Numbered from the whole stretch's first letter, positions 35,135 through 58,755 are shown. The stretch: 63,514 nucleotides of DNA, filler included, from Craspedostauros australis (GCA_030167865.1; 21 parts of 21 records of this genome joined end to end with filler, not necessarily neighbours in it); one strand, 5' to 3'. Numbers and translations are program-made. Notes: generated by a model not told the origin, from the sequence alone.

Positions 35135-35939
35135 ATGCCGAATGTTACGAACCAACAACTCCTTGATGCTGCCAAGACAGGTGACTTGTCGGTGTTGAAG
35201 GAATGGAAGAAGCAGAGCACGACACAGAATGAAGGAGTTGATGTCAACATGGTTACAGGCAGGAGAGGTCGGACTCCCCTTCATTTGGCATGTCACAACG
35301 GCCACCTGGAGTGCGTGGAGTACCTCATTGAATCATGTGAGGCGAACATCAACTGCAAAAACAACGATGGTATCACTCCCCTTCATGTGGCATGCTTGTG
35401 TGGCAACCTGGAGTGCGTCAAGTACCTCATCGAATCATGTGAGGCGAACATCAACTGCAAAACCAACGATGGTTCCACTCCGCTTCATGTGGCATGCATG
35501 TACGACCACCTGGAGTGTGTGAAGTACCTCATCGAATCATGTGAGGCGAACATCAACTGCAAAGACAACAATGATCTCACTCCCCTTCATGTAGCATGCC
35601 ACAACGGCCACCTGGAGTGCGTGGAGTACCTCATTGAATCATGTGAGGCGAACATCAATTGCCAAAACAACAATGGTTGGACTCCCCTTCATCACGCATG
35701 CCGCAACGGCCACCTGGAGTGTGTGAAGTACCTCATCGAATCATGTGAGGCGGACATCAACTGCAAAGACAACGATGGTGACACTCCCCTTCACCAGGCA
35801 TGCTGCAACGGCCACCTGGAGTGCGTCAAGTACCTCATCGAATCATGTGAGGCGGACATCAACTGCAAAGACAACAATGATCTCACTCCCCTTCATGTAG
35901 CATGCCACAACGGCCACCTGGAGTGCGTGGAGTACCTCA
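35135..35939 (+). CDS. Ankyrin-repeat protein, family copy 1: N-cap plus at least 7 repeats of 34 aa, 3' truncated
   Basis: Tandem 102-bp units encoding TPLHxACxxGHLECVKYLIESCEANINCKxNxGx. Confidence 0.95.
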
Positions 35940-36129
35940 NNNNNNNNNNNNNNNNNNNNNNNNNNNNNNNNNNNNNNNNNNNNTTAATTAATTAANNNNN
36001 NNNNNNNNNNNNNNNNNNNNNNNNNNNNNNNNNNNNNNNATGTATGTATGTAGGTACTAGTATGTATGTGTATATGGTCGGTCATCACGCCTTCACACAT
36101 TCCCATTCGGTTCTGCATCATGCTTCTCC

Positions 36130-38757
36130 TCAGCTTTTGTCTGTCTTGCTTCTCTTGCGGCCTCGAGTTGATCCATCTCCTGCCGATTTTCTTTTTTGGT
36201 CCAGCTCCCCGCCCCTTCCCCGGAATGCCTCGAGGCCGTCCAGATAATCCCGCAACCAAGGACACTTGCTCTTTATCCAAGCGGCTATATCCTCCGCATC
36301 CTCCAAAGACTGAGGGTTGGTGATACGGTTCGCTTTCTCGTTGGTCTTCCGACTTCGCCGGCGACAATCATCGAGCTTGTTCATCGATTCACCCAGCAGT
36401 GGACTCTTATCGGTGGGAAAGCCTACGTAGAAAGATGTTCCGTCGGCCGCCTCTCCGGAGTACTTTTTCTTCAGATAGAGTTTGTCTTCCCTGCTTGCAA
36501 CGCAGTACAGTCGATTCGAGCCAAATGTGATGCTAAGGAGGCTGTCGTAGACCCTGTCTCTGTTCTTGCGGATGTTCTCGTATTTGATTGTGCTGGAATC
36601 AAAATAATCTTTGGCTTGGATGCAGACCGTGAAGAATCCCACTTCCCATCTCGAGGAATTACTTGCGCTGTTTGTGGTCTTCTTCACGCCAGCAGTGGAA
36701 ACGTATCCATCCGCGAGGTTGCTCGATCCCTCCGCCACAGTTGTGAGTGATGGACAGAAATTCTGTTTGGTTGGATTGAATTGGGGCGCTTCTGTCTTTC
36801 TGATCGTTTTCTCAAGATGACCGCATGCCTCCCTCATCTTGAAAAGCCCATCTGTTAGGACAATGTCCATGTCGAACGATGGAACCAAGGTCTCAAACTT
36901 GGAAGCATCGAAACCCTTGGCTTTCTCCCATTTCGAGATCAGTTTACGACGCCTGCTGCCAAAGTCTGGATCGACTTGCTTTGTTTTCAACTTGTCCCAA
37001 CGGTTCTTCCGCATGCGAGTCTTCTGGGCTTCGAGTCGTTTGTTTACTTCCTTGTTCATCCACTTGTTGACCTGAGCTTCGGTCATGGATTCAAAGTTTT
37101 TGGGCTTTGTTGGTATGGTCGGTTCGTTGACGTTCATTTCAGACTGCTGATAGTACATTCCATCCATCGCGAGCTCAGACTCATCAGAAACAGGAATCAC
37201 ACTTTTCAGCGCGTCCCATGCCATTGTCACGTGGTCTATCTTGTCACCAAGGACTCCGTCGGACAACTTGAGCTTCAATCCGAGGGTATCCTTGAAGATG
37301 GATTGGATGCATTTCCTGTGCTTGAATGAGACGGTCTTGGCTGCAGTGATGGCAGCACCAATGATCTGCGTTGACAACGCCTCGTAGGCAAACGGCGTTG
37401 TTCCAAGAAAGCCAACACCACCTTTCAGCCTGATTCCGCCCTCCAAAAGCCACACACAGAACAGTTGAATTGCCTCATCCACTATGTATGGCTTCTCCAG
37501 TTCCTCTTGATCCTTGAACTCTGGATCGACTTTGTTCTTGCCGTCGTCACCCACAATAATGTTGTCGAAGATCTTGAAAGGCACGGGTGTCACCAGTCCG
37601 TACTCCGTGACGAGATCTTGCATGATGTTGATGTCGTTGTCTCCGAACTTCTCGAAGTTGATTCCATAGTCGAGTGCCATCGCGTGTTTCCTTGCTAGGT
37701 CGATGTCCAAGGGCACTTTGAATGTTGTTTGATACAGAAGAATGGCAAGCGTCCGTGCCACTGCCAGAGCTCGTTTGCTGCCAAGTTCGTCAAAATTGCT
37801 TGGTTCCCACAGTTCTGACATGCCATTGCTTCTCGCGAATTTATCAAACACCAAAGACACCAACTCCATCTCATCATTCGGCTTGCCGAACTTCAACACC
37901 GACTCTGCCAGCTGGTTGACCAAGATCGAGGCCATCCTTGCATTGTGTGATACAATGACGCTCAGGAATGGCGTCTCCATTATCTCCTTGTAGGAGGGGA
38001 GCTTGTGCCTTTTCCAGGTTCCTTTGTGGTATTCCTTGCGGAGGGCTTCGTACACTTCCTTGGGATCCTTTTGGGCGCTGGGGATAAGACAGACGAAATT
38101 GTTGCTTTGAGAACCGACAGTCCCACCGTACATCCCAGTACCTGCAATAGAGAAGACCACCTCGATGGCTGACAGGGTGTCGAATACTGGGAGCTCGCCA
38201 TCACCCGGGCTGGCTTCTGCCTTCTTGCTTCCAATGGCCTTGTTCATGATGTAGTGACCGAGGTCTCTTCCAAGGTGTCTATAGTTTCTGATGATCTCTT
38301 TCGCGAAATTGGGACACTTCCGTGCTTCATCGATGGCAAGCACTATNCGAATCATGTTGTCCTTCACCTTCGGGTGTGCATCGTCTCCAGTCGAGTCGCT
38401 CATGCGTTCCTTCTTCTTCTTCTTCTTCTTCTTCTTGAGTGTATCCAACCGCTGCCGCACCGTGTTTACGATCGTTGATAGCACCACACCGTCACGTGTG
38501 AAGAAAGCATTCACCCATTCCTTCAAGTAAGCTCGGCACTGCTCCGTTCGAGCATCGTTTGGATCCGCCGCCGCTATGTCACCGTCTGCTTCATGCATCA
38601 GAGTGATGACAGCATGTCTTGACTCTGAGCTTGTTGCCAGCTCGACTGTCTTTCCTGTACCGCTGCCGGAGAAGAAGACACGGACTACGCTGGTGTGTGC
38701 AGCTTTGTCATTTTGGGTGACATGAACTCTTGGGGGGATTCTAGATTCGCTGCCCAT
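36130..38757 (-). CDS. P-loop NTPase plus restriction-endonuclease-fold protein (Crinkler/RHS-like), 875 aa
   Basis: Walker A SGSGTGKT, Walker B VLAIDEA, C-terminal ADG...VCIQAKDY (D...QxK nuclease-like motif) and an NLS-like RGRKRSK. The N-terminus may be incomplete. Confidence 0.65.
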   Translation of the reverse strand: MGSESRIPPRVHVTQNDKAAHTSVVRVFFSGSGTGKTVELATSSESRHAVITLMHEADGDIAAADPNDARTEQCRAYLKEWVNAFFTRDGVVLSTIVNTVRQRLDTLKKKKKKKKKERMSDSTGDDAHPKVKDNMIXIVLAIDEARKCPNFAKEIIRNYRHLGRDLGHYIMNKAIGSKKAEASPGDGELPVFDTLSAIEVVFSIAGTGMYGGTVGSQSNNFVCLIPSAQKDPKEVYEALRKEYHKGTWKRHKLPSYKEIMETPFLSVIVSHNARMASILVNQLAESVLKFGKPNDEMELVSLVFDKFARSNGMSELWEPSNFDELGSKRALAVARTLAILLYQTTFKVPLDIDLARKHAMALDYGINFEKFGDNDINIMQDLVTEYGLVTPVPFKIFDNIIVGDDGKNKVDPEFKDQEELEKPYIVDEAIQLFCVWLLEGGIRLKGGVGFLGTTPFAYEALSTQIIGAAITAAKTVSFKHRKCIQSIFKDTLGLKLKLSDGVLGDKIDHVTMAWDALKSVIPVSDESELAMDGMYYQQSEMNVNEPTIPTKPKNFESMTEAQVNKWMNKEVNKRLEAQKTRMRKNRWDKLKTKQVDPDFGSRRRKLISKWEKAKGFDASKFETLVPSFDMDIVLTDGLFKMREACGHLEKTIRKTEAPQFNPTKQNFCPSLTTVAEGSSNLADGYVSTAGVKKTTNSASNSSRWEVGFFTVCIQAKDYFDSSTIKYENIRKNRDRVYDSLLSITFGSNRLYCVASREDKLYLKKKYSGEAADGTSFYVGFPTDKSPLLGESMNKLDDCRRRSRKTNEKANRITNPQSLEDAEDIAAWIKSKCPWLRDYLDGLEAFRGRGGELDQKRKSAGDGSTRGRKRSKTDKS

Positions 38758-38952
38758 GTGTCGAAACTTGCAATCGCCGATGTAATATACTCTTCTCCTC
38801 CCACCACACTGTATGCTCCGAAGAGAATGCTTTGTGTGTTCGGTTCGAGCGTNNNNNNNNNNNNNNNNNNNNNNNNNNNNNNNNNNNNNNNNNNNNTTAA
38901 TTAATTAANNNNNNNNNNNNNNNNNNNNNNNNNNNNNNNNNNNNNNNNNNNN

Positions 38953-40522
38953 CCTAGCAAGGAAACACGCGATGGCACTCGACTATGGAATCAACTTCGA
39001 GAAGTTCGGAGACAACGACATCAACATCATGCAAGATCTCGTCACGGAGTACGGACTGGTGACACCCGTGCCTTTCAAGATCTTCGACAACATTATTGTG
39101 GGTGACGACGGCAAGAACAAAGTCGATCCAGAGTTCAAGGATCAAGAGGAACTGGAGAAGCCATACATAGTGGATGAGGCAATTCAACTGTTCTGTGTGT
39201 GGCTTTTGGAGGGCGGAATCAGGCTGAAAGGTGGTGTTGGCTTTCTTGGAACAACGCCGTTTGCCTACGAGGCGTTGTCAACGCAGATCATTGGTGCTGC
39301 CATCACTGCAGCCAAGACCGTCTCATTCAAGCACAGGAAATGCATCCAATCCATCTTCAAGGATACCCTCGGATTGAAGCTCAAGTTGTCCGACGGAGTC
39401 CTTGGTGACAAGATAGACCACGTGACAATGGCATGGGACGCGCTGAAAAGTGTGATTCCTGTTTCTGATGAGTCTGAGCTCGCGATGGATGGAATGTACT
39501 ATCAGCAGTCTGAAATGAACGTCAACGAACCGACCATACCAACAAAGCCCAAAAACTTTGAATCCATGACCGAAGCTCAGGTCAACAAGTGGATGAACAA
39601 GGAAGTAAACAAACGACTCGAAGCCCAGAAGACTCGCATGCGGAAGAACCGTTGGGACAAGTTGAAAACAAAGCAAGTCGATCCAGACTTTGGCAGCAGG
39701 CGTCGTAAACTGATCTCGAAATGGGAGAAAGCCAAGGGTTTCGATGCTTCCAAGTTTGAGACCTTGGTTCCATCGTTCGACATGGACATTGTCCTAACAG
39801 ATGGGCTTTTCAAGATGAGGGAGGCATGCGGTCATCTTGAGAAAACGATCAGAAAGACAGAAGCGCCCCAATTCAATCCAACCAAACAGAATTTCTGTCC
39901 ATCACTCACAACTGTGGCGGAGGGATCGAGCAACCTCGCGGATGGATACGTTTCCACTGCTGGCGTGAAGAAGACCACAAACAGCGCAAGTAATTCCTCG
40001 AGATGGGAAGTGGGATTCTTCACGGTCTGCATCCAAGCCAAAGATTATTTTGATTCCAGCACAATCAAATACGAGAACATCCGCAAGAACAGAGACAGGG
40101 TCTACGACAGCCTCCTTAGCATCACATTTGGCTCGAATCGACTGTACTGCGTTGCAAGCAGGGAAGACAAACTCTATCTGAAGAAAAAGTACTCCGGAGA
40201 GGCGGCCGACGGAACATCTTTCTACGTAGGCTTTCCCACCGATAAGAGTCCACTGCTGGGTGAATCGATGAACAAGCTCGATGATTGTCGCCGGCGAAGT
40301 CGGAAGACCAACGAGAAAGCGAACCGTATCACCAACCCTCAGTCTTTGGAGGATGCGGAGGATATAGCCGCTTGGATAAAGAGCAAGTGTCCTTGGTTGC
40401 GGGATTATCTGGACGGCCTCGAGGCATTCCGGGGAAGGGGCGGGGAGCTGGACCAAAAAAGAAAATCGGCAGGAGATGGATCAACTCGAGGCCGCAAGAG
40501 AAGCAAGACAGACAAAAGCTGA
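38953..40522 (+). CDS. Identical partial second copy of the NTPase-nuclease gene
   Basis: 38953-40612 is the reverse complement of 36040-37699 and the translations are identical. Confidence 0.85.
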
Positions 40523-40661
40523 GGAGAAGCATGATGCAGAACCGAATGGGAATGTGTGAAGGCGTGATGACCGACCATATACACATACATACTAGTACCT
40601 ACATACATACATACTAGTACCTACATACATACATCCATACGTGCATGCCTTCGTCACCATA

Positions 40662-41462
40662 TCCATGGTGAGTTTTTTCCTTCCTTTGAAGGAAGCTTTC
40701 CTAGTGCACCTTCCTTCAAAGGAAGATCGGAGGGGTCAGAGGGCCCCAATTCTTCCTTCAAAGGCAGGCCTGCCTTTAAAGGCAGAATTCCGGCCCCTCA
40801 GAGGGGGTCAAAATCACAAAAAAACAGACCCCAACGCAAACATGACACCCCACTGCGTGGAAACAACACGGTTTTTGCGTTACGCGATACATACGGACGT
40901 TGCAACCGCAAATTTACTTCTGGTTCCTGTGCTTTACAGACTAGTGCCAAAATTGCAGCGCACTCATGCAGCACTTGATGTGAGCACGAATAATACACCA
41001 ATGCCTCTCCTTCGACACTAGCTGGTCTATACGTCTCCTATGCATGTGGAAGATCGATAATGGTAATAGGAATGCATATATTTCTACTATGTTACTTTAG
41101 TACAGTTGCCTTCATGGTTGCTTTGCTACGTCTACGTGCAAGTCGACGTTCAGACTGACAGATGCGGGAGGACGTCCCTCCTCCACGTGTAGATGAGGTG
41201 GTTCCGATTCCTCTCCTCTGGTTGTGCTCGGCGTCGACCTCGGTCGTGTTTTGATCGATTTCAAGCAGCATGAGACGTCTTCCACATGTTACACTCGATT
41301 TCAAACAAATTTCATCGAGGCGTTGGAAAAAACTGCGAAATCACTCCATTATGTAAAAATAGTCGTTTTGATGTCTGCAACGACAGTTCGTGGTATCCAG
41401 GTTCTGGGTTGGACAGTTGTGTCGGTTTCTGCGGCAATGAAAGTCATCGGTTTTGGATGGCC
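40662..41462 (-). mobile_element. TA-flanked TIR-element terminus with subterminal palindromes, followed by the repeat shared with 3305-3803
   Basis: TA-TCCATGGTGAGTTTTTT resembles TA-TCCCTAATGAGTTTTTT at 22350. Four CTTCCTTTGAAGGAAG-type palindromes lie at 40680-40785. 40965-41462 matches 3305-3803. Confidence 0.6.
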
Positions 41463-41576
41463 NNNNNNNNNNNNNNNNNNNNNNNNNNNNNNNNNNNNNN
41501 NNNNNNTTAATTAATTAANNNNNNNNNNNNNNNNNNNNNNNNNNNNNNNNNNNNNNNNNNNNGGGGGGGGGCTACC

Positions 41577-43466
41577 ATGATTGCAAACCAGATGACTATT
41601 CTGTGGGCAGCGGCAACCAACTACATGGGGTGCCAATACATGGCAGAGAAACCCCCACCGGAAGTGGACTCGGGAGCCGATGCGATGACGGTTGACAGTG
41701 ACGATGACAGCTATGATCTCGTAGCTTTGGTGTCAAAGAAACCGCTTAAACAGGCGAATCTGACAGCATACACCACAAATACGAAGATCAATTCGCCAGC
41801 GCCACAAGACAAGGACGGAAACCCAAGCGTAGCAAGAGTGCCAATAGCCAGCGACGGAAACTCCAACAGCAACGAGACTACAGATGACGGATGGACCAAA
41901 CACCAGAAGAAGAAACCTCAGATGTCTAACCCAAAGCGCCGGTACTATGAGAGACTCGAAATGCGCCTCAAAATCCCCAAAGGCACCAAAACGCCAGTGA
42001 GGGATTTCCAGGAACGCTTTCGGCAATGGTACGACGAAGCCAAAGGCATGGATCAGAGCCTGACAATAAGCCCATGGTACAGGAAGAACAAGACCAAGGG
42101 TTGCATCATCACCGACGCAGACATTCCTGCTATGTGGAAGGATCTCCGATATTACATCGGCAGAGCCAACCCAACGTCGAAGAGTGAGGACGTATACTTG
42201 CAGGTACTGATGTCCTCAAACATTGACATGCAGGCATTCACAAGCTGGAACACGGAGCTCGAGGGCGCATACCAAAAAGGTGAGTATGCCTACATCCAGG
42301 ACTTGCGAGACGCAGAGCATATGACAGAGATAGGCTTCATGGCCTACTCTGGCAACTTCACAAAGGCGAAGCAAACGTTAGCAGTCATCAACCAGCTGCT
42401 GGAAGAGAAGAGAGCCAAACTCAAAGTCGGCGGCAGGGTAAAATTCATGGGGAAGGTATCCGAGGAAGTGAAGACAAATCATTTGCAGAATGGAGGAAGC
42501 TGGTACAATGCTCCATGGATGGCACTTCATCTACATGCGGATGTAAAAGACGCGCGCAGGGCATCAAAGCTCCTGGGTAAAATCTTCAACACCAAGGATG
42601 GCGACCGCAAAGGCCTCAACTACAGATATGTGCCCAAACCAGGTACGTCTGTCATGGGAGCGAAGATGGCGATGAAAGTTCAGGCCATGATCCGGAAACA
42701 TCAGAGCTACGTGCGCAGACTGAAGTACGAACAGCTCAAAGGCGACTTCGCGTTAGACACCAAAGATCCAGAATCGGGCACCGTCACTCTTCGGGAGTTC
42801 CTGGCGCAGCAAACTAGCGACGGCAATCCTCTCATCCATGATGTCAGCACAACGCACATGGCAGATGGTAAGGAAGACGCGATCCATATTGTGGCTTTCG
42901 AGGAGCGACACGCGCAAGCGGTAGGGCTCATCCACACAATCGCAATTAGCTGTTCAACGGAAATCAACGCATCCACGAACAAGGGGTTCTCCGACGACAT
43001 TGTGGCAATGAGTTGCGCCATGATAAAGGACGACAGCGGGGAATACGTGGATGTAGAGACTGAAGAAGAAATGGACTTCCTTTTGGACGAAGGTTTTGGA
43101 AATGTTGTCATCGAAGGCATCGACCTCATGGAGAGCGAGAGCGCATGCCCGAAGCGAAAGAAGGCTAGACTGGAGGACGAGGGTTTCAAAACTTTCGGGA
43201 CAGAATACGGCAAGCCAGCAGCTTCGTCACGATACACCATACCGAAATCTCAGACAGAGGCAGATGAAATCGAAGCGGAAATCGAAGAAGCCATGAAGAT
43301 GGCAAGAGAAGCACAAGAGTTGGCGGCGAGTCGAGTCAGAGTGCAAGAGCAATCGAGCATGATCACCAACCAAGAAGCAATCATAGCGGCACTGCGCGCC
43401 CAACTGGAAGCGTCCACGGCCACGCCACCTGCCTCAAGCAAGGGTAGGGGCGAGGATCAAGAATAA
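41577..43466 (+). mobile_element. Non-LTR retrotransposon ORF1 (629 aa)
   Basis: Long intact ORF with a C-terminal coiled coil, directly upstream of an APE-endonuclease ORF. Assigned by position. Confidence 0.8.
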
Positions 43467-44382
43467 AGAGAGGCTGGGGGCAGGAGAAGCATCACCAACC
43501 ACCCCCGCAAGCCTAACAGATGCAACCCCGGAGGAAGGGCGCCAGGAAGGGCACAACCTCCACGATCGGCACTGGGGCGACTCCCCTCGTACAAAGAGCA
43601 GTTCGGTATTGAGAATAGTAGCTCTTAACGTGGGGTGCCTACAGGCGGAATCGAAGCATTGGAAAAACGACGATCTATGGCAATGGGTCAAGCAGAAGAA
43701 GTTTGACGTGGCCCTGCTATCAGAGATAGGAGTCAACTGGTCCAAGGTGGGCAAGATGAACTCGTGGAAGGCGAGAGCACACAAACACGTGCATACAGAA
43801 AGGCACGCTCTGGCATACAACGAAAGAGAGAAGCTTGGTGGAATTCGACAGTGGGGAGGCACGGCATGCGCAATAATCGGAAACGTCGCAGGCAGATACA
43901 AGAGTCTGGCCAACGATCCCCGCAAGCTGGGAAGGTGGACAAGCATGGCCATAAGAGGCAGACAGGACACCACAGTGAGACTTGTGAGCATTTATGTCCC
44001 CAACAAGGGTGGTCAGAGCGCCGGCACAGTCTATAATCAACAGGCATCGTGGTTGGAGTCCCAAGGCATCGACACAGCTCCCATTGAGCTATTGATCCAG
44101 GATCTGGAAACAGCCATCCAGGAATGGAGGCAAGATGGGGAGGCAGTCATTGTCGGAGGAGATATAAACATGCTGGTGGTTCGCTCCCAAATGGCGACCA
44201 TGATGGGCCGACAGCACATGAAGGAGGCGATTCTCAGTCGACACCCGCAAGCCCCAGGAATATCAACAAATGTGAGGGCAAACTCGGACAGGGTGATCGA
44301 CGGCATATGGGTGCCAGCATCGGTGCAAGTCATACGAGCGGGATACAGCGAGTTTGGAATGTGGGACCACAGAACGGCGTGG
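43387..44382 (+). mobile_element. Non-LTR retrotransposon ORF2 N-terminus (apurinic-type endonuclease), 3' truncated
   Basis: WGD...RIVALNV, LLSEIGVNW, GRWTSM, VSIYVP, VGGDIN, IDGIW and DHR are EEP endonuclease motifs. The frame opens after a TAG at 43384-43386. Confidence 0.92.
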
Positions 44383-44482
44383 NNNNNNNNNNNNNNNNNN
44401 NNNNNNNNNNNNNNNNNNNNNNNNNNTTAATTAATTAANNNNNNNNNNNNNNNNNNNNNNNNNNNNNNNNNNNNNNNNNNNN

Positions 44483-44908
44483 CAGGAATCGATCTGCAAG
44501 TACATGACGCGTGCCGTCGCATACTACAACGAATGGGGCTGCTCCATCAAGGTGAAGGACATCCAGAAGCGCCGATCGCAGTATCTGACGCTGGATGGCA
44601 GCATGCAGTTACAGGATGCCAACGATGGTAGAGTGGTGGATCTCGCAGGTCATCATCACAACAAGGTAACCGCTGGAACATTGATGACGGGAAGCGTTGC
44701 ACCGAAATCCATCGCTGGTCGCAGCATGAACGATCACGACACGAAGTGGACGCAGACTTCCACGAAAGGCAGCATGCATGAACAAGAAGGCGCTGGCTTG
44801 TCGCATATCTCCAGCGAACAGAGCGATGGAGTGAAAGAGGACGAGCATCAAAGCAACGACATCGACGACGATGACGACGTGTCCGTACTGACGGACTTGT
44901 CGGGCTAG
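44483..44908 (+). CDS. C-terminal fragment of a hypothetical protein
   Basis: Frame open from near the contig edge, with an acidic tail DDDDDVSVLTDLSG. It converges on the aspartoacylase gene. Confidence 0.35.
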   Translation, partial: QESICKYMTRAVAYYNEWGCSIKVKDIQKRRSQYLTLDGSMQLQDANDGRVVDLAGHHHNKVTAGTLMTGSVAPKSIAGRSMNDHDTKWTQTSTKGSMHEQEGAGLSHISSEQSDGVKEDEHQSNDIDDDDDVSVLTDLSG

Positions 44909-45191
44909 AGAGAGGGTCGAGGGTTGCAATTGTATTCCGACAAACCAATAGAGAGCGCAACCATAGAATGGAATATGTATTACATTCGGAGATGATGATG
45001 CAAAGTGGCGTTGGTACCCTCACGGGGCACGGAAAGATGGATGGCCAATGCCTCCGGTGCCGCAAGTGTGCAAGTAAACGAAGACAGAGTACCACGGGCA
45101 ATCTTCTCGACTTTTGTGATGAAGTGTGTAATATTCTCATATAATAACATTAATGAATGTAACATCGCACACGGCGATTCACGATTCTTCT

Positions 45192-45231
<40 letters not shown>

Positions 45232-45258
45232 GGCAGGCATACGTATTATCATATCATA

Positions 45259-46569
45259 CTACAGCTCCCGCATCGATCTCGCAGCCGCACCAGCCGTCAC
45301 CAAATCTCCCATCGTTGCCCCGTGCGCCGATGCCGCATCCATCAGCATGCCCGTCACGAGATCGTACTCGGCCTGCACCGCGACGCCAATGCCGGTGCCG
45401 GAACTCTTGTAATAGTAGCCACCTTCATTGATGAACATGAGCTGCACGGGCGAGCCATGCGATCCGTTGTACGTGATGACGTTGCCCTCCATGTCGATGA
45501 AGATGGGATCACCCGTGTGGACGTGCGCGAAATCGCGGTCCTGGATGTTCTTGTGAATCATCCATTGGGGAAAGTTCGGATTGTCGTCGTCATCCGTGGG
45601 CCACACAATCTTGCCGCTCATCTCGCCTTCTCTTTGCGCCGCCGCCGATCGGAAGCACGGCACGACGATGCCACCGTAATGTCGCTTGAGCTGCTGCAGG
45701 ACGCTGTCGGCGTCGCGGTTGCGCTGTTCGAGGTAGGATAGCAGGCAGTACAGCACGCCCTCCGTCTTTTCGACCATATCGTGCCGTATGACGCCCTGCG
45801 GCACGGGCCCCACCTCGATGGTGAAACCGTGCCTGCCCGTCGAGGAGAGGTTGGGCCGCACGGAACGGTTGGGATGCGTGTGCATCAAACAGCGCACATC
45901 GTCGAAATGCTGCATGACGTACGCCGCGGCCTGCGTCATGACGGTGTCGCCCTGCGCCACGATGACCGTGACGCCCATGTTGGTCGTCGTGGTGTGCAGA
46001 TCGACGACGACGTCCGTGGCGGGATCCTCGTTGAGCGTGACGCCGTCGGCGAGGAACTTGGGTCCCAGCAGGTCGCTGAGTTGTTTGGCGCGTTTGGATT
46101 CGACCGTCGTGGCAGCATCCTTCCAGACGTCCGACGCAAACTGGCGATTGAGATCGGCCTCCACAAAGCGTTTGTTGGCCATGTGCGCGTCCGGGTTTGC
46201 CAGCAGCACGGCGATGTTGAGCGAGGGGTACTTGTCCTTGAGGCTGCCGCGGTCGAGGCTGACGAGGTTTGTGAGATGCTTGCTGTGGCTGAGGTTGTTG
46301 CCGTTGATGGAAGCCGCGGCGGCCATGGCCTTGACGACCCACACACCCGTGTACTCATTGCCGTGCGTGCCACCCACCACAACGACGTTGCGAAGAAGTG
46401 AGGCCGCGCACCGAGGCATCGTCGCTGCTGTGAGCAAGGTCATCATGAGCATTGGCATGCAAATGAAGTTGTGGACGCAGGAGTGAATGCGTGTGCTGCG
46501 GCGGGCGCTGCTGCGAATTGGAATGGAGGCACTTGAGGGGGATGAAGGAGATGAAGGAGGGGATATCAT
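45259..46569 (-). CDS. ASPA: Aspartoacylase (AstE/AspA family)
   Basis: VVGGTHGNEYTG, NKRFVEADLNRQF, DLHTTTTNMG, IEVGPVPQG and FINEGGYY. The start is at 46569 or 46458. Confidence 0.93.
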   Translation of the reverse strand: MISPPSSPSSPSSASIPIRSSARRSTRIHSCVHNFICMPMLMMTLLTAATMPRCAASLLRNVVVVGGTHGNEYTGVWVVKAMAAAASINGNNLSHSKHLTNLVSLDRGSLKDKYPSLNIAVLLANPDAHMANKRFVEADLNRQFASDVWKDAATTVESKRAKQLSDLLGPKFLADGVTLNEDPATDVVVDLHTTTTNMGVTVIVAQGDTVMTQAAAYVMQHFDDVRCLMHTHPNRSVRPNLSSTGRHGFTIEVGPVPQGVIRHDMVEKTEGVLYCLLSYLEQRNRDADSVLQQLKRHYGGIVVPCFRSAAAQREGEMSGKIVWPTDDDDNPNFPQWMIHKNIQDRDFAHVHTGDPIFIDMEGNVITYNGSHGSPVQLMFINEGGYYYKSSGTGIGVAVQAEYDLVTGMLMDAASAHGATMGDLVTAGAAARSMREL

Positions 46570-47961
46570 TCCTGGACTTGAGCCGAGCTGAATGGATGGA
46601 CGGACAGCGTCTGTACGAGCTGTTGCGGTTGCAGCTGAGAAGACGGATCGAGTGACTTGGAATGCTTCGCCAACGCAGTGCTGCGATGTTGCTATGAATG
46701 GATGGATGGATGGATGGATGGATGGATGGATGGATGGATGACCGAATGAATGAGGGAAGCAGGCACGTGAAGAGTCTGACCCGATGGAGAAGTATAATAC
46801 GTGGCGGCGTGTCTGAATGTGCCGCCGCTTCGAATACAAGAGGTGTGCCATTCATGAGAATGCAAACAGCGAAATCGTGGAGAAGGATTCTCTCTGGAGC
46901 AGAGATTGTTGAGCCGGCTTGAAGCAAACACCCTCTTCTCCGCGACGAGACTCGCGATGGTGGTCGTCGCCCATCAACAAGGAAGGAGAAAGGCACAACA
47001 GATGTTGGTGTCAAATGTGTGCCAAACACGGAAGTTCGCTCCATGTCATCTGTCGTGCCAATCATGTCGGTTCCCTTCCAAACTTCTCACAAGAGAGGAA
47101 GATCGACTGAATCGACTACAAAAGGCGAAGCGAGGATAACCGTGACTCGATCGCACCAATGTCTCGTGACTAAAAACGAATCCAGAAAACAGAAATCANN
47201 NNNNNNNNNNNNNNNNNNNNNNNNNNNNNNNNNNNNNNNNNNTTAATTAATTAANNNNNNNNNNNNNNNNNNNNNNNNNNNNNNNNNNNNNNNNNNNNCC
47301 GATTGGACTCCTTGGGGGATACGCGTACATCGTGACGTGCGATGGTTGCAATTGAGATTGTGATCATCTTGGTGCTCCCTCCGTCGCATCATCGCTGTTG
47401 GCGTCATCATCACTTTCGTGGTTGTTTCGAGTTGACGATCAGAGATCTCATTTGAACGCCTTTCTGANGNGTCCTTCTCATGAAAGAAGCTAATGAAGTA
47501 CTTCATTGACACACAGAATTCGTGGAATTGGGAACATCTCTGCACGTGCAAAAGTGGTGAAGTGAGAATCAACGATTCCCATTTGTGGTGTTCTCGTGTT
47601 CGCAACAGCGATCTTGTGGGGGCGTGTTGTGTTCTGTTCCTTCTTCTCGTTGTTGTGTGCGCCAGTTCGCAGCGAGTAAAAGGAAGGATCCGCACTCTCC
47701 GGACAGCGCTGGTGCCCTCTCCCAAACCAGGGTGCGATCAAGAAGTGGACAAACAGAGAAACGAGGAGAGAAACGGGAGAACATTGAAACGAGGCAACCG
47801 CACACACTGCTCAACCCCACAATCGAGCACATCAACAACACACATGTCATGGGTTGCTCGAACTCCACACTTCCTCGACAGTCAATCCAACCTCAACGTC
47901 CAACGTCCAACGTCCAACGTCCAACGTCTATCGTCCAGCAACCATCGACCATCCTCTCGAA

Positions 47962-49139
47962 ATGCAGTATGTTACGAACCAACAACTCATTGGTGCTGCC
48001 AGGACAGGTGACTTGTCGGTGTTGAAGGAATGGAAGAAGCAGAACAAGACGCAGAATGAAGGAGTTGATGTCAACATGGTTACAGGCCGGATTGGTTGGA
48101 CTCCCCTTCATTTGGCATGCCGCAACGGCCACCTGGAGTGTATGGAGTACCTCATCAGATCATGCAGGGCCGACGTCAACTGCCAAAACAACTATGGTTG
48201 GACTCCCCTTCATATGGCATGCATGCATGGCCAGCTGGAGTGTGTGAAGTACCTCATCGAATCATGTGGGGCGAACATCAACTGCCAAAACAACCATGGT
48301 CACACTCCCCTTCATTGGGCATGCTGCTGGGGCCACCTGGAGTGTATCGAGTCCTTCATCAGAGGACTTTCGCCTTCAGCTCACCCACAATTGCAACAAC
48401 TGCAGCAACGCTTACAACAATACGAACAAGCAAATGAACAATCACAAGAATAGCTGAGACAGCAGTTGAAGCACAAGAGCCAAAAAGAATGAACACAAAC
48501 ACAGCAGCAACAAGAGGACCAACATCAACATTTGAGAAGATCGGCCAGATCCTTCCAAACTAAGGACAGGACAGACACCATCTTCTTGTGTGGACAGGGC
48601 GACCAACAACAACTAACCAAGGCAAACGCCCAAGCCCTCATCATCACACTCCCATCCATTGAGACACTGATCGACAAAGGAACTCAACTTCACCGCGCGA
48701 ATGATGACGCTCACGGTGGAACTGAAGCCATCCAAACAACCATCCCTCTTCCCAACCTTCAACCAAAGCACATCCGATACGTCCTCCAATGCATCTACAC
48801 AGCCAAGATATCCTTCAATGACAGTGCTCGTGACAACGCTGCTGCTCACACTGGCACTCATGTTGGCGCTCACGCCAACGCTCACCACGATGTAGATGCC
48901 TCTCACCAGCCAACTCCCACCCTCACTGGGCAGGACGATCTGCAACAGCTGATCCTTGTGGCCAACGAGTTCGGCTTCTGGCGACTCAAGCTTGTTCTTG
49001 AAGCAGAGTTGGCCCACAAGCATCTCACAGAGGACACCACGATAGATGCGTTGAGATTCGCTGATCAACACAACTGCGTGGTGTCGAACGATACAGCAAT
49101 GAGAATGGCAGCTGAAAGTGAGAAAGATATGTTCACTCA
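47962..49139 (+). pseudogene. Ankyrin-BTB family copy 2: 3 repeats, Q-rich linker with stops, BTB/BACK-like domain
   Basis: The ankyrin ORF ends at TAG 48451, with a further TGA at 48490. The same frame then gives TDTIFLCG...HIRYVLQCIYT...LILVANEFGFWRLKLVLE (BTB). Confidence 0.85.
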
Positions 49140-49876
49140 NNNNNNNNNNNNNNNNNNNNNNNNNNNNNNNNNNNNNNNNNNNNTTAATTAATTAANNNNN
49201 NNNNNNNNNNNNNNNNNNNNNNNNNNNNNNNNNNNNNNNCCGATTGGACTCCTTGGGGGATACGCGTACATCGTGACGTGCGATGGTTGCAATTGAGATT
49301 GTGATCATCTTGGTGCTCCCTCCGTCGCATCATCGCTGTTGGCGTCATCATCACTTTCGTGGTTGTTTCGAGTTGACGATCAGAGATCTCATTTGAACGC
49401 CTTTCTGACGTGTCCTTCTCATGAAAGAAGCTAATAAAGTACTTCATTGACACACAGAATTCGTGGAATTGGGAACATCTCAGCACGTGCAAAAGCGATG
49501 AAGCGAGAATCGACGATTCTCATTTGTGGTGTTCTCGTGTTCGCAACAGCGATCTTGTGGGGTGTGTCGTGTTCTGTTCCTTCTTCTCGTTGTTGTGTGC
49601 GCCAGTTCGTAGTCAGCAAAAGGAAGGATCCGCACTCTCTGGACAGCGCTGGTTCCCTCTCCCAAACCAGGGTGCGATCAAGAAGTGGACAAACAGAGAA
49701 ACGGGAGAACATTGAAACGAGGCAACCGCACACACCGCTCAACCCCATACTTGAGCACATCAACAACACACATGTCATGGGTAGCTCGAACAGCACACTT
49801 CCTCAACAGTCAATCCAACGCCAATCGTTCAACGTCCAACGTCAATCGTCCACCAACCATCGACCATCCTCTCAAA

Positions 49877-50665
49877 ATGCCGAGTGTGAGGAAATATCAA
49901 CTCCTTGATGCTGCCTATGCAGGTGACTTGTCGGTGTTGAAGGAATGGAAGAAGCAGAACAAGACGCAGAAGGAAGGAGTTGATGTCAACAAGGTTACAG
50001 ACAGCAATGGTTGGACTCCCCTTCAATACGCATGCTTCTATGGCAAGCTGGAGTGTGTCAAGTACCTCATCGAATCATGTGGAGCGAACATCAACTGCAA
50101 AACCAACCGTGGTTGGACTCCCCTTCATCACGCATGCATGCGTGGCCGGCTGGAGTGTACCGAGTACCTTGTTGCATCATGTGAGGCGAACATCAACTGC
50201 AAAGACAACCATGGTTGGACTCCCCTTCATTGGGCATGCCGCTCCAGCCACCTGGAGTGTATGGAGTCCCTCATCAAATCATGTGAGACAAACATCAACT
50301 GCCAAAACAACCAAGGTGAAACTCCCCTTCATTACGTATGCATTGATGGCCACCTGGAGTGTATGGAGTCCCTCATCAGAGGACTTTCGCCTTCAGCTCA
50401 CCCACAATTGCAACAACTGCAGCAACGCTTACAACAAAACGAACAAGCAAATGAACAACCACAAGAACAGTTGGGACAGCAGTTGAAGCGAAAGAGGCAA
50501 GAGAATGAACACAAACACAGCAGCAACAAGAGGACCAACATCAACATTGGAGAAGATCGGCCATATCCTTCCAAACTGGGAACAGGACAGACACCATCTT
50601 CTTGTGTGGACAGGGCGACCAACAGCAACTAACCAAGGCAAACGCCCAAGCCCTCATCATCACAC
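49877..50665 (+). CDS. Ankyrin-BTB family copy 3: 4 repeats; ORF stops at 50632, BTB start in the -1 frame, truncated
   Basis: Same N-cap, repeats and Q-rich linker as copy 2. The upstream ~630 bp is shared with 47299-47960. Confidence 0.85.
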
Positions 50666-51224
50666 NNNNNNNNNNNNNNNNNNNNNNNNNNNNNNNNNNN
50701 NNNNNNNNNTTAATTAATTAANNNNNNNNNNNNNNNNNNNNNNNNNNNNNNNNNNNNNNNNNNNNTCATGTCAAATCTACGTATTAGGTGAATAACGCAC
50801 AGACGCCAAAGTGCTCATTGACGCTTCAATTTAGTCGCAGTGGTCATTCGTCCCAAAACAGTCTTTTTTCTTCCGTCGTTTGGGCTTTGTTCGCGATTCT
50901 TGAATTTCCGGAGAGTGACTTTACCTTGTGCTCACACAGAATCGTTGGTGTGAACACAAAACTGTTGTTGCATGGAGAGTGATATGATGTATCATATTGT
51001 GATGCGGTGCGATGTGCAATGGGCCGTCAACCAGGATGGTAGGCACAGTCCTTGTTCCTCTTCCTCCTGTCTGTTATGTCAGCATGGTAGTAAGGTGGGT
51101 GCACTGGCTGCAATGCACAAGACGCATACGATGCAAGTTGCGCAGCGCTGAATTGGACGATGTGAATTGCTGGTCCCAAGATGGAAATGGACAGCACCCT
51201 CGCCACAGTCCTGTACGCAGCGGC

Positions 51225-51490
51225 AACCCCAACCCACACATCTCTAACCCAAACCCTAACCCTAACCCTAACCCAGGTCTTGGCCCTCTGGCCCCCGAAC
51301 CCCAGCCCTAGCCCTAACATTGAGTAACTTCCTGGCTCTGTGTGAGCATTGTCAGCCGCACGCAGTTGCCTCCCTCGTCTCTCCCAAGTTGCCGAAACCC
51401 CAACCGGAACCCCAACCCTAACTCTGCTCCTGAGCAACTGCTTCCCTCCTACCTAACCCAAGCTGGAACCCCAGCCCTAACTCTGACCCT
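51225..51490. repeat. Degenerate telomere-like (CCCTAA)n tract
   Basis: CTAACCC AAACCC TAACCC TAACCC TAACCC at 51244-51274, plus scattered degenerate hexamers. Confidence 0.65.
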
Positions 51491-52373
51491 GAGCGACCTC
51501 GTGACTCTGTCTGAACAACGTCATCCGCACACAGTTACCTCCTCCGTCGCTCTGGTGTTGCCCTTGTCGCGAACTCTTGCTTTTCTCCCACTTTTTTGCT
51601 TCCCGCACTGTTTCGATCCATTTCAACGGCCGCCGTTCCAGCGTTTTTGATTCGATTTCACGATTATTACAGTTTGTTTCGTCGGAGGTATCCTCCAGAA
51701 CGTCCTTTGAACTATTTGGCGCCAATGAAACGTAATCAACATTGTCGATTGTGACCCTGGTATCCGGACAGACGTCATATCTGCTGAGTAAAACCTGGCA
51801 CGTTGGCTCGAAGGCTTCGTTGAGNNNNNNNNNNNNNNNNNNNNNNNNNNNNNNNNNNNNNNNNNNNNTTAATTAATTAANNNNNNNNNNNNNNNNNNNN
51901 NNNNNNNNNNNNNNNNNNNNNNNNTCACTCTTTTTCAGTGTATGGACACTTTGGGGCATGCAATGTGGCCAAAACGTTGTATCCTTCATGGAGTGGGTAG
52001 ATGGGGGGGTATACAGAGCGATTGTGATGCGCATATTACAGAAATGCAACAGTGATGATGATCATCATGGGTGTTGAGGGGAGGGCAACATTGGTTGATC
52101 GAGAATTTCCCGAATCCACCACACAAAACACNGCAAACCAACATGACTACCAAAATATTTCCTATACTCATTTAACTTCGATATTCTGATTAACCGATAG
52201 TCATGTGTACGAACGCAATGTTTAGATATAATTTTAAGCAATTTGTTGTTGAGATATAGCATGATAAGCCGATATTTGGATGTGTTTTTGGATGGCCTCT
52301 AGACTCGTTTTAGTAGCTTGGCCGGGCGCCCACAAAACTCCACAACTCGTGTTATCGTGGTGATGCACACCCA

Positions 52374-53793
52374 TCACAAAATTTCTGTCCCATCATCCAA
52401 CACAGCCTCACTTTCTGTGTTCGCCTTCACTGTGTGAGCATCACACCACCTCTGATTCTCCAATTCCTCTTCCTCTCTCTGCAACTCCTCTTCGATTCGT
52501 TCCTCCTCTGTTGCAGCTGGCGCATTGGGGGCCGCCACGATTACAGATGCTGTTGCTGTGCTTGTTGGGTTGGTGTTGGTGTTGGTTTCCGTCTTGATGA
52601 GGGCAGCCTGCTTCTTTTCTTTGCGTTGTTTGGCACTGTACGCCGCAAACAGCGACGATTTGACACGCATGGGATTTGCGTGCAGTTGCACGTACCAGTC
52701 AGTTTTGGTTCTTGCGTTGTTCATCAGTTTCTCGTGTGCTTCGTGCTCCGATGGCCTGTTTTTTGGGTCCTTTGCGGACGCTTCACAGATGTCCTTCAAC
52801 TTGTCCGCGATGTAGTCTGGTAGTTTTGCGTTGGTCCGTGTTGTTTTGCTCGCCCAGCCTGGCACTGCGAGTGGTGGGTGTTCGGTTTCCGCGGTCTGGT
52901 CTTGTAGTGCTGTGGTGTGATCGGATGGTAGATGTTGTTGTCCGTCTGCGATGGCTTTGCCGATCGCAAACGCCTTGCTCTCTGTCGCTGTGCGCCCGAG
53001 TTTTCGCGTCTTGTCCGTCTTCCTGGACGATTCGGACGTGATCGGCGGCTTGTCGGACGTGTGCGAATCGGCAGGGACGACACCCAACTCGTTGATGATC
53101 CACCCTTCCCATTCAGCGCTCTTGACCACGACGTCTTCCGTGATGCCAGATGCAGCCACCAACCATGCCTTGTCATCACCATACTTCACCTCGTGAGTCT
53201 GATGTACCTGTTGCCCACTTGCACGGAATCGTCTTTTTGGTGCGCCCGGTAACGTCGTGATGTTGCCTTCAAGGGTCTCTGCGTTGGCCAGTACCGTGGT
53301 GGTACCCACGATGTTACCGGCGACCAGTGCCTCGAAGAGTTGCAGCGGGGTCTTGATGTCATGTCCACTTTGCACGTATTTTCGCAGCACACGGGTGATG
53401 TACGCAAAGTGGGTGTCCAGCATGCTCTTACCGGTTTGGGCCTCCGTGTAGATCCACGCGATGATTTTGGCCGCGTTTCGTNNNNNNNNNNNNNNNNNNN
53501 NNNNNNNNNNNNNNNNNNNNNNNNNNNNNNNNNNNNNNNNNNNNNNNNNNNNNNNNNNNNNNNNNNNNNNNNNNNNNNNNNNNNNNNNNNNNNNNNNNNN
53601 NNNNNNNNNNNNNNNNNNNAGCAGTCCACCAACTTGAAGAGTGTCTTGTGTCGGTCTTCCATCGACCACAATGTCGATGAACCGATAAGTGAAAATGTCA
53701 TTGCGACATGTGATGACCATCGCCCCAAGCAGTGACATTCCCTTCTTCCCCCAATATTCTTGTTGGGCTTCGCCTTGGCCTGTTGGTAGAATT
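52374..53793 (-). mobile_element. DDE transposase C-terminal half, Sola-like (Sola3-type motifs), 5' truncated
   Basis: LPTGQGEAQQEYWGKKGMSLLG and TEAQTGKSMLDTHFA...RKYVQSGHDIKTP resemble the WFGKRG and SExxxGKxxxD...YVxxGxDI motifs I recall from Sola transposases. The superfamily call is from memory. Confidence 0.55.
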
Positions 53794-53893
53794 NNNNNNN
53801 NNNNNNNNNNNNNNNNNNNNNNNNNNNNNNNNNNNNNTTAATTAATTAANNNNNNNNNNNNNNNNNNNNNNNNNNNNNNNNNNNNNNNNNNNN

Positions 53894-55136
53894 GCATGCT
53901 GGAACGGCCACCTGGAGTGTGTCAAGTACCTCATCGAATCATGTGAGGCGGACATCAACTGCAAAAACAACAATGGTTACACTCCCNNNNNNNNNNNNNN
54001 NNNNAACGGCCACCTGGAGTGTGTCAAGTACCTCATCGAATCATGTGAGGCGGACATCAACTGCAAAAACAACAATGGTTACACTCCCCTTCACTGGGCA
54101 TGCTGGAACGGCCACCTGGAGTGTGTCAAGTACCTCATTGAATCATGTGAGGCGGACATCAACTGCAAAGCCAACAATGGTTCCACTCCCCTTCATTTGG
54201 CATGCCACAACGGCCAGCTGGAGTGTATCGAGTCCCTCATTAGAGGACTTTCGCCTTCAGTTCACCCACAACTGCAACAACTGCAGCAATGCTTACAACA
54301 AAACGAACAAGCAAATGAACCACCACAAGAACAGTTGAGACAGCAGTTGAAGCGAAAGAAGCAAGAGAATGAACACAAACACAGCAGCCACAAGAGGACC
54401 AACATCAGCATTGAAGAAGACAGCTCAGATCCTTTTAAACTGGGAACAGGACAGACAACATCTTCTTGTGTGGACAGGGCGACGAACAGCAACGAATCAA
54501 AGCAAACACTCAAGTCCTCATGATCAATGTCCCCTCCATTGAGACACTGATCGACAAAGGAATCCAACATCAGCACGCGAATGATGGCACCGAAGACTAC
54601 GTGGCCCCATCCAAACAACCATCCCTCTTCCCAACCTTCAACCAAACCATGTCCGATACGTCCTCCAATGCATCTACACAGGCGAGAAATCCTTCAATGA
54701 CAGCGCTCGTGACAACGCCGCCGCTCATGTCGGCGCTCACGCCAACGCTCACCACGATACAGATGCCTCTCACCAGCCAACTCCCATCCTCACTGGACAG
54801 GATGATCTGCAACAGCTGATCCTTGTGGCCAACGAGTTCGGCTTCTGGCGACTCAAGCTTGTTCTTGAAGTGGAGTTGGCCCGCAAGCGTCTCACAGAGG
54901 ACACCATGATAGATGTGTTGATATTCGCTCATCAGCACAACTGCGTGGTGTTGAAGGATGCAGCAATGAGAGTGACAGCTGAAAGTGAGAAGGATACGTT
55001 CACTCATCTAGATTTAAGCAAACTAAGTCTACAACCTCAACTGATGGGAGGCATTCGTGTCCTCCGCAATGGGGGAGCGGAGAGTGATGGTACTGATGAT
55101 GAGTACAGTCATATGTCCATGATGGACCTGTACAAG
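53894..55136 (+). pseudogene. Ankyrin-BTB family copy 4: at least 4 repeats, then a frameshifted BTB/BACK-like domain
   Basis: The ankyrin frame 53894-54523 is followed by BTB sequence spread over several frames (TDNIFLCG..., ANEFGFWRLKLVLE, HNCVVLKDAAM). Confidence 0.85.
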
Positions 55137-58159: not shown

Positions 58160-58755
58160 TCATGAAGCAAGAGGGGTCAAATAGTCGACAACATCAGTGT
58201 AGCCGATTTCTTTCGCAATATTCAGCGCAGTCAAGCCACTGCTGGTCTTGATGCTGATGTCTGCGTTGCACGATTCTACCAAGTACTTGACGACTTCCAA
58301 TTCACCATTCCCACTTGCCAACCGAAGTGCAGTTCCGCCATACTTGTTCCGAATGTTGATTTTTGCGTTGCAGACTTCCACCAAATACTTCATGACTTCC
58401 AATCTGCCATTGATGCTCGCAAAGTGCATTGCTGTGTTGCCATGATTGCTGGTTTTGATGTTGACATCTACCTTGCCTTGTTCAACCAACGACTTCACAA
58501 CGTCGAGATGACCATTAGCGCTTGCGCGATGGAGGATGGTTTTGCCTTTCTCGTCTTTTACGTTCAAATCAGCATTTGGTGCTGCGACCAGATACTTGAA
58601 AATGTCGAAATGATTGTTGTGATATGCCTTGTAGAGTGGAGTCTCGTATGTGTCGTTCACAGCGTTGATATTGGCCTTACCGGATTCAACCAGCTGCTTC
58701 ACAACATCGAGATGGCCATCGCCACTTGCGAGATGGAGCACGGTGTTGCCATCCT
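58160..58755 (-). CDS. Ordinary ankyrin-repeat protein (divergent repeats), 5' truncated
   Basis: LHLASGDGHLDVVKQLVE, LHRASANGHLDVVKSLVE and similar repeats, diverged throughout. Confidence 0.9.

Follow-up and report, generated by a model that had tools for sequence, protein, structure and literature searches.

Hypervariable codons in the ankyrin units of a candidate Cullin-3-type adaptor family from the diatom Craspedostauros australis

We analyzed a 63.5-kb stretch of DNA from the diatom Craspedostauros australis (GCA_030167865.1; hereafter the window), in which four gene copies, A to D, carry tandem 102-bp repeats encoding 34-residue ankyrin (ANK) units. Comparison of these units showed that their DNA had remained similar and that six codons, predicted to lie at the surface, were far more diverse than neutral sites. 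We lean, by a little, towards reading the copies as members of a large, lineage-specific birth-and-death family of Cullin-3 (Cul3)-type adaptors with a diversifying ankyrin binding face. The architecture, consisting of an N-cap, a varying number of 34-residue units, a glutamine (Q)-rich linker, a SPOP/KEAP1-type BTB domain with a putative 3-box, and a conserved tail, would be that of a Cul3 substrate adaptor in which the ankyrin array served as the substrate-binding part.

Four gene copies and the variation among their ankyrin units

The window was not a single locus but 21 short contigs (1.1−12 kb) joined through spacers of the form N44-TTAATTAATTAA-N44, with extra single Ns and N runs within the contigs. 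Tandem Repeats Finder, run over the whole window, detected period-102 arrays at 35273−35939 (6.5 copies), 48093−48361 (2.6 copies), 50007−50378 (3.6 copies) and 53894−54240 (3.4 copies), and no such array elsewhere in the window. In frame, the 102-bp repeat read as the 34-residue ankyrin unit, and both approaches confirmed the four loci proposed in a first-pass annotation of this DNA, with at least seven, three, four and at least four units in copies A, B, C and D, respectively. The same annotation had placed contig starts at 35135, 47962 and 49877; these held up as gene positions, all three being start codons, whereas the contigs of copies A, B, C and D actually began at 29957, 47299, 49240 and 53894.

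All four copies were encoded on the plus strand. Copy A (35135−35939) comprised a start codon and N-cap (35135−35269) followed by units A1−A7 from position 35270, as delineated by its open reading frame (ORF), by Pfam and by the relative P0123, residues 1−262 of which aligned to the copy from 35135. The protein start thus lay 45 residues ahead of the first unit; unit A7 was cut by the contig end, leaving the linker and BTB of this copy beyond the visible sequence. Copy B (47962−48453) contained a start codon, N-cap, units B1−B3 and a Q-rich linker running to an in-frame TAG (48451−48453), and its BTB with 3-box/BACK-like helices, identified by Pfam, HMMER, structure modelling, Foldseek and the relative P0121, followed at 48574−49139 in a frame open to the contig end. 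In copy C (49877−50632), a start codon, N-cap, units C1−C4 and a Q-rich/KRKR linker continued past the ANK−BTB junction to a TAA (50630−50632); the first 25 codons of the BTB (50590−50665) lay in the −1 frame with respect to the ANK part and were cut by the contig end. Copy D carried units D1−D4 (53894−54283), of which D1 was cut by the contig start and D2 had an 18-N gap (53987−54004), then the linker and junction (54284−54453), and the BTB with its 3-box/BACK-like helices and the beginning of the conserved C-terminal tail (54454−55136), again cut by the contig end. The BTB part was therefore visible in copies B and D and over the first 25 codons of C.

Judged by their sequences, copies A−D are paralogues and not one single gene, the DNA identity being 88.1% for B−C (1063 nt), 85.9% for B−D (1019 nt), 82.9% for C−D (633 nt) and 84.8% for A−B (441 nt). 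Copies B and C had an upstream region of ~620 bp in common, and the 5 kb ahead of copy A was unique DNA that did not resemble this region. Copies A and D could be opposite ends of a single gene, given that an array is cut at the end of A and at the beginning of D and that the two have closely similar units (A5 and D1 differed at 1 of 72 scaffold bases). Throughout the ANK parts of the four copies, all ~680 codons were open, with neither a stop nor a shift.

Pfam recognized the arrays unambiguously (Ank_2, E 2.5e-129; Ank, E 2.2e-80, with seven stretches in copy A), and the tandem units with their TPLH motif place the product among the ankyrin repeat proteins of the Pfam clan Ank. The unit is one residue longer than usual, the extra residue falling after helix 2 in an alignment to ankyrin-1. 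With position 1 defined as the residue ahead of TPLH, positions 1, 6, 9 and 10 each held 7−9 different residues (2.2−2.8 bits), position 33 held six and position 31 held four, while 13 of the 28 other (scaffold) positions were invariant. The residues listed by the first-pass annotation (nine preceding TPL, seven following TPLH, and 12 distinct pairs following AC) were exact. W, Y, F and H accounted for 27 of the 68 residues at positions 1, 6, 9 and 10.

The diversity was not spread evenly over the unit, as the six codons (1, 6, 9, 10, 31 and 33) carried 55% of the summed entropy. Among 145 unit pairs, nucleotide difference averaged 9.8% in the scaffold compared to 53% in the six variable codons, in agreement with the proposal that the scaffold was nearly invariant even at the DNA level. 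Over all unit pairs, the proportion of non-synonymous differences per site (pN) was 0.536 in the six codons, 3.6-fold above the proportion of synonymous differences (pS) of 0.150 in the 28 scaffold codons, whose own pN was 0.085; the variation thus concentrated on the predicted binding face, and at a level exceeding the scaffold synonymous rate, as had been suggested. A tree-free minimum count gave a similar result, placing no fewer than 36 replacements in the six codons and no fewer than 11 synonymous changes in the 28 codons of the scaffold, which corresponds to a per-site ratio of 3.75. Even units no more than 5% apart in scaffold nucleotides differed at 17−92% of their variable-codon bases.

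Other features of the arrays pointed to exchange among units. Two pairs of units were exact duplicates (A4 = A7 and D1 = D2), units D1−D3 were nearly identical (0−1 of 66−72 scaffold bases differing), and a higher-order period of 306 bp was present in the arrays; mean pairwise unit identity was 79% in copy A, 68% in B and 61% in C. The duplicates and the 306-bp period suggest that unit duplication, unequal crossing-over and probably gene conversion homogenize and shuffle the units, and diversifying selection would maintain and renew the variety at the beta-turn and helix-1 codons, yielding many binding faces on one scaffold. Whole codons differed at up to three of three bases between units of almost identical scaffold, as might be produced by a targeted mutagenesis that rewrites specific codons, instead of by selection on ordinary mutations. 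Such a mechanism seems to us extremely unlikely, given that neither a template repeat nor an associated enzyme turned up beside the genes and that unit shuffling plus selection explains the same pattern in fungi, as described in PMC4986451.

The AlphaFold2 (AF2) model of copy C (mean predicted local distance difference test score, pLDDT, 67) contained a helix pair per unit and a helical linker. Helix 1 spanned unit positions 3−9 and helix 2 positions 13−23, which therefore put positions 6, 9 and 10 on one face of helix 1 and positions 1, 31 and 33 in the turn. From this helix periodicity and from the positions used in designed libraries, rather than from measured coordinates, we infer that the variable positions sit on the concave face. 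Five of the six coincided with positions randomized in designed ankyrin libraries, bearing out the overlap with designed ankyrin repeat protein (DARPin)-type positions that had been noted before.

The BTB domain and the interrupted ANK−BTB junctions

The array was followed by the Q-rich linker and then by a region scored marginally as BTB by Pfam, with 20.4 bits in copy B and 17.5 bits in the second window score compared to a cut-off of 20.5; nine of the ten closest relatives passed this cut-off with 24.0−34.4 bits. BACK_BPM_SPOP reached 18.6−22.2 bits across the window and the relatives (18.6 in the window), below its cut-off of 27.4. The AF2 model of the BTB region of copy B, built on the family alignment (pLDDT 73.7), showed a BTB core followed by four helices (132−198), with a low-confidence His/Ala-rich loop of 29 residues interrupting the domain. 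The best Foldseek matches of this model were KEAP1, the SPOP BTB/3-box, KBTBD2/4 and the KLHL11 BTB-BACK (Foldseek probability 1.00; query TM-score, TMq, 0.52−0.58), and on account of these matches the domain was identified as a BTB of the Cul3-adaptor type. The four helices after the core were aligned by Foldseek to the SPOP BTB/3-box and the KLHL11 BTB-BACK.

A HMMER search with the BTB ORF of copy B against 1.84 billion representative proteins returned 19 matches, 13 of them at ≤1e-10. Eight of the 19 were full-length ANK+BTB proteins of 434−607 residues with the junction in one frame, and shared one plan: an N-cap, 3−9 units of 34 residues with a KYLVESC-like helix 2, a C-cap, a Q-rich linker, the BTB and the tail, with QDRL...D-x-x-F-L-x-G as junction motif and DDxYSxMS...SYMDR in the conserved tail. 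The only named relatives were complete ORFs from the Craspedostauros australis MMETSP1442 transcriptome (e.g., UniRef A0A7R9WS08, A0A7R9WX37 and A0A7R9ZPE7), the other ANK-BTB relatives being Joint Genome Institute (JGI) proteins. Three further matches were MATH-BTB proteins, and two (a cadherin-repeat protein and a low-complexity protein) looked spurious. Identity between window and relatives in the BTB part was 36−66%, and 59−66% between copy B and P0121.

Units within a relative were 25−55% identical to each other compared to 61−79% within the window copies, and variable and scaffold positions contrasted 1.6-fold in entropy in the relatives compared to 5.8-fold in the window. Because the units of the relatives are ordinary, diverged repeats, the combination of a near-identical scaffold with hypervariable codons is, on the evidence of these alignments, a feature of the window copies and not of the family overall. 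A word-based protein search with the BTB ORF found P0121 alone among proteins of similar length and no match among longer ones, and the same search with the ANK part of copy A found generic ankyrin proteins alone (27−51% identity) among the 120 matches listed. A scan of metagenome contigs gave two loci at 35% identity, both generic ANK; a scan of viral contigs gave no match, and a PDB sequence search with P0121 gave none. Within the window, tblastn with P0123 also located an ANK-only ORF on the minus strand (58160−58755; 36−38% identity), 5′-truncated by the contig end, in which family-style 34-residue units (KYLVESC-like helix 2) formed ordinary diverged repeats and a stop directly followed a C-cap-like unit, with no BTB after it.

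Several observations weigh against the adaptor reading. The contigs contain Ns and break inside the family, and a chimeric assembly is possible. The sample consisted of 18 units (12 of them complete and internal) from three to four paralogues, for which pairwise counts are not independent. The six variable sites had been picked after looking, and an a priori set of seven codons matching designed-library positions was used for this reason; this set passed too, with 34 of the 61 minimum replacements (binomial p 1.8e-9) and an entropy above that of the remaining positions (Mann−Whitney p 0.002). The scaffold was not tight, its pN/pS being about 0.57−0.61. The BTB parts of copies B and D differed by 15.5 synonymous and 34.5 non-synonymous changes over 176 codons, and the resulting pN/pS of 0.64 (Fisher p 0.11) was indistinguishable from neutrality, so that constraint was neither shown nor excluded. 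The BTB part thus had the fold of Cul3 adaptors and showed no clear purifying selection. Finally, an intact ANK-BTB copy was looked for in the window, and ANK and BTB shared one frame in none of the three assessable copies (B, C and D).

No fusion was encoded in these copies because the junction was short by one base. From the Asp-Arg pair to the Asp starting the BTB, copies B, C and D contained 29 bases as opposed to 30 (ten residues) in the relatives. Copies B and C lacked the T of a Leu codon (between 48545 and 48546 in the Asp-Arg-Leu motif of B, and between 50561 and 50562 in C), located outside any homopolymer; copy D kept the Leu codon and lacked one base within or beside the preceding Arg codon, depending on the alignment. 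Additional lesions also count against an intact gene: in copy D, the BTB frame was stopped four codons further by a TAA (54436−54438), and a second one-base shortfall at ~54585−54639 split the BTB across two frames, as a result of which P0121 aligned to D in two pieces (54520−54639 and 54609−55136). Besides the TAG in its linker, copy B had an extra base near 48484 and an in-frame TGA (48490−48492). Three-way DNA alignment, three-frame translation and comparison with the relatives confined these lesions between linker and BTB to 48484−48546 on the plus strand, and P0121 aligned to copy B in one frame over 48640−49137.

The family was also represented in one public sequencing run, X1, which comprised 30610 contigs; the type of the run was guessed, and contig depth in it does not equal copy number. 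The multicopy nature claimed for the family was borne out by 1220 of these contigs, which matched copy B at ≥80% identity (209 at ≥99%, 308 at 95−99%, 394 at 90−95% and 309 below). At single places in the BTB, 25−31 contigs carried another letter, and the family therefore had at least dozens of sequence variants there. Most X1 contigs had C at 48451, the T of the copy B TAG, and the extra base near 48484 was absent in one contig (depth 336 of 482). A T behind 48545, which restores both the Asp-Arg-Leu motif and the BTB frame, was found in three contigs (summed depth 386 of 1521), and because of these contigs we take it that junction-intact copies exist alongside a junction-broken majority. Frameshifted variants were present as well, e.g., with one base left out at 48092 in three contigs. 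The stretch 47471−47750, upstream of copy B, had zero cover in X1.

Two ways of joining the ANK and BTB frames across the offset were considered and rejected. An intron, inside which both stops and the extra base of copy B would fall, was at variance with the relatives, in which a single frame runs through linker and junction, flanked on either side by homologous residues; the offset was accounted for by a single missing base, inspection by eye found no GT in the interval from the final BTB-frame stop to the start of the BTB, and the linker was skipped by none of the 15 X1 joints listed (of 28). For programmed −1 frameshifting, no slippery heptamer was seen by eye.

The X1 data also bear on whether the pattern is an artefact, in which collapsed reads from a multicopy family were assembled into chimeric arrays and base-calling errors generated the frameshifts. 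The Ns and N runs inside the contigs and the ending of all four contigs within the family would be expected in that case, yet the variation was codon-specific and not random, the missing T was not in a homopolymer, and X1 held T-less together with T-bearing junctions and confirmed many of the variant letters. An artefactual origin is accordingly, in our estimate, very improbable.

It is quite unlikely, in our view, that the copies are dead repetitive DNA, i.e., pseudogenes spread by segmental duplication or mobile DNA, whose site pattern would be a fossil of ancestral selection. The ~680 ANK codons were uninterrupted despite 10−19% DNA divergence between the copies, and A5 and D1, despite their near-identical scaffolds, differed at 4 of 12 variable-codon bases; near-identical units that still differ at variable codons indicate that the diversification was recent. 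Dead copies would explain why the junctions were broken in three of three cases with further stops and shifts in B and D, why other frameshifted variants, such as the one at 48092, occur in X1, and why the family lies on short unplaced contigs among contigs with long ORFs of no Pfam family. They would fit less well with the position of copy A behind 5 kb of unique DNA unlike the region upstream of B and C, or with the junction-intact variants in X1.

Alternatively, loss of the BTB might be the working state, in which proteins made of N-cap, array, Q-rich helix and basic tail would function as free binders, as decoys or as inhibitors, with decay of the BTB downstream. The open ANK parts of four copies next to three broken junctions of three fit such ANK-only proteins, as do the seemingly different one-base losses 3 nt apart in B/C and in D, which suggest recurrence. 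Roughly three quarters of the summed junction depth in X1 lacked the restoring T, the BTB pN/pS was compatible with neutral decay, and the related minus-strand ORF at 58160−58755 stopped right behind its C-cap. On the other hand, the BTB ORF of copy B was open over 188 codons at its 59−66% identity to P0121, the fusion was kept in eight relatives, and copy B stopped within the linker, so that the tails differ between copies; we regard ANK-only function as rather unlikely. 

In the adaptor reading that we favour, birth-and-death turnover would cause many copies to lose their BTB, and the three judgeable copies of the window would be such copies. By analogy with known adaptors, intact members would dimerize, bind Cul3 and direct the ubiquitination of proteins that evolve fast and are probably foreign (of viral, parasite or non-self origin).

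Other sequences in the window

Two neighbouring contigs, 36040−38852 and 38953−41462, were mutual reverse-complement copies over a long ORF (924 and 537 residues visible) of no Pfam family. The stretch 41563−44382 carried two long ORFs (651 and 347 residues) in different frames, overlapping by ~80 bases and running into the contig ends; they had no Pfam match at E 0.001 and may, as a guess, derive from a mobile element. On the minus strand, a 530-residue ORF at 45259−46851 belonged to the succinylglutamate desuccinylase/aspartoacylase family (Pfam AstE_AspA_cat, E 1e-26), and one of its nearest Atlas clusters was mostly Bacillariophyta. Five CTAACC copies, the complement of a TTAGGG-type telomere repeat, lay at 51244−51274 within a 1-kb contig.

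Tandem repeats of other kinds included a 65-bp repeat at 1267−3017 (27.5 copies with 83% matches; higher-order period 254 bp), and two 20-bp arrays of similar units at 22812−22969 and 23498−23635 (7.9 and 6.9 copies), 530 bp apart on one small contig. A 29-bp unit of the AAAAGATGCCC...GGGCA...TTTT type occurred as short tandem pairs in three places on one contig (27894−28686).

Relation to known recognition systems

Designed ankyrin proteins offer a counterpart to the distribution of variable sites. DARPin libraries (Binz et al. 2003) reportedly randomize positions 2, 3, 5, 13, 14 and 33. Window unit positions 33, 1, 6, 9 and 10 presumably correspond to library positions 3, 5, 10, 13 and 14, if TPLH is placed at 6−9. 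The window units resemble DARPins and the ANK-N5C library in keeping one scaffold fixed while the beta-turn and helix-1 residues vary, and differ from both in being natural, 34 residues long and Cys-rich. Library positions 2 and 33 were (near-)invariant in the window family (Asn and Lys/Gln, respectively), and Cys, which is excluded from designed libraries, was found at its variable sites. For ANK-N5C, PMC4308713 names positions 2, 3, 5, 10, 13 and 33 as randomized, forming a continuous binding surface.

Among natural systems, the fungal NOD-like receptors (NLRs) came closest in their repeats. According to Dyrka et al. 2014 (PMC4986451), the ANK repeats of these proteins, like the TPR and WD ones, show high internal conservation, with selection at five concave-face positions, polymorphism in repeat number, and concerted evolution combined with diversifying selection for non-self recognition. 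The window family shares with them units of 33−34 residues that are very alike in DNA and vary in number, and a few hypervariable, positively selected positions, for which the concave placement is predicted here. Unit identity of 61−79% lies below the 85% criterion (over ≥100 residues) of that paper, except for D1−D3. The fungal array follows a NACHT/NB-ARC and an N-terminal effector, whereas the window array precedes a BTB. Pfam assigned ANK and BTB/BACK families alone in the window ORFs, with no NACHT/NB-ARC (nucleotide-oligomerization domain, NOD), and the window family is therefore not an NLR. The idea of a natural DARPin-like repertoire is thus not new in kind, the same regime having been described for the ankyrin repeats of fungal NLRs (PMC4986451).

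The output domain has closer parallels elsewhere. MATH-BTB and F-box adaptors of nematodes and grasses (Thomas 2006, as summarized in PMC4334554) form large birth-and-death families that are read as a defence degrading foreign proteins, and in which the substrate-binding domain, unlike the Cullin-binding one, is under positive selection. The window family resembles MATH-BTB proteins in its BTB of the SPOP/BPM kind (three of the 19 HMMER matches, and the weak BACK_BPM_SPOP score), and differs in that the substrate part is a modular, shuffled ankyrin array rather than a single MATH domain. Compared with the solved Cul3 adaptors KEAP1 (9ety, 9etx), SPOP (3htm, 4j8z, 8dwv), KBTBD2/4 and KLHL11 (3i3n), the predicted fold was alike over 175−193 columns, whereas sequence identity was just 10−16% and the window BTB had the additional His/Ala-rich loop. 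ANK and BTB are also found in one protein in plant NPR1 and animal ABTB1 and BTBD11/ABTB2. To our knowledge, these are single-copy conserved regulators with another domain order or number and no hypervariable arrays.

In the literature searched, which lacked most subscription journals, an ANK-array plus BTB family in the diatom lineage appears undescribed, and the kind of system is already known from fungi for the repeats and from nematodes and grasses for the BTB adaptors. An Ectocarpus preprint touches on ankyrin families in passing, and BTB occurs in it just as part of a grant number. A more far-reaching version, which we think unlikely, is that of a germline-encoded intracellular defence in a unicellular alga, where dozens to hundreds of ANK-BTB Cul3 adaptors on one Cys-rich scaffold would present combinatorially renewed faces against viruses, parasites and non-self; junction-broken ANK-only copies might then provide a pool of units or function as decoys. 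Little is known on how diatoms recognize viruses and parasites inside the cell, and the family is a concrete, testable candidate for this role. It would extend the combination of near-identical repeats and hypervariable contacts from fungal NLRs to a stramenopile alga with a different output domain, and a 34-residue Cys-rich scaffold that tolerates almost any residue at five to six positions is of possible interest for protein engineering.

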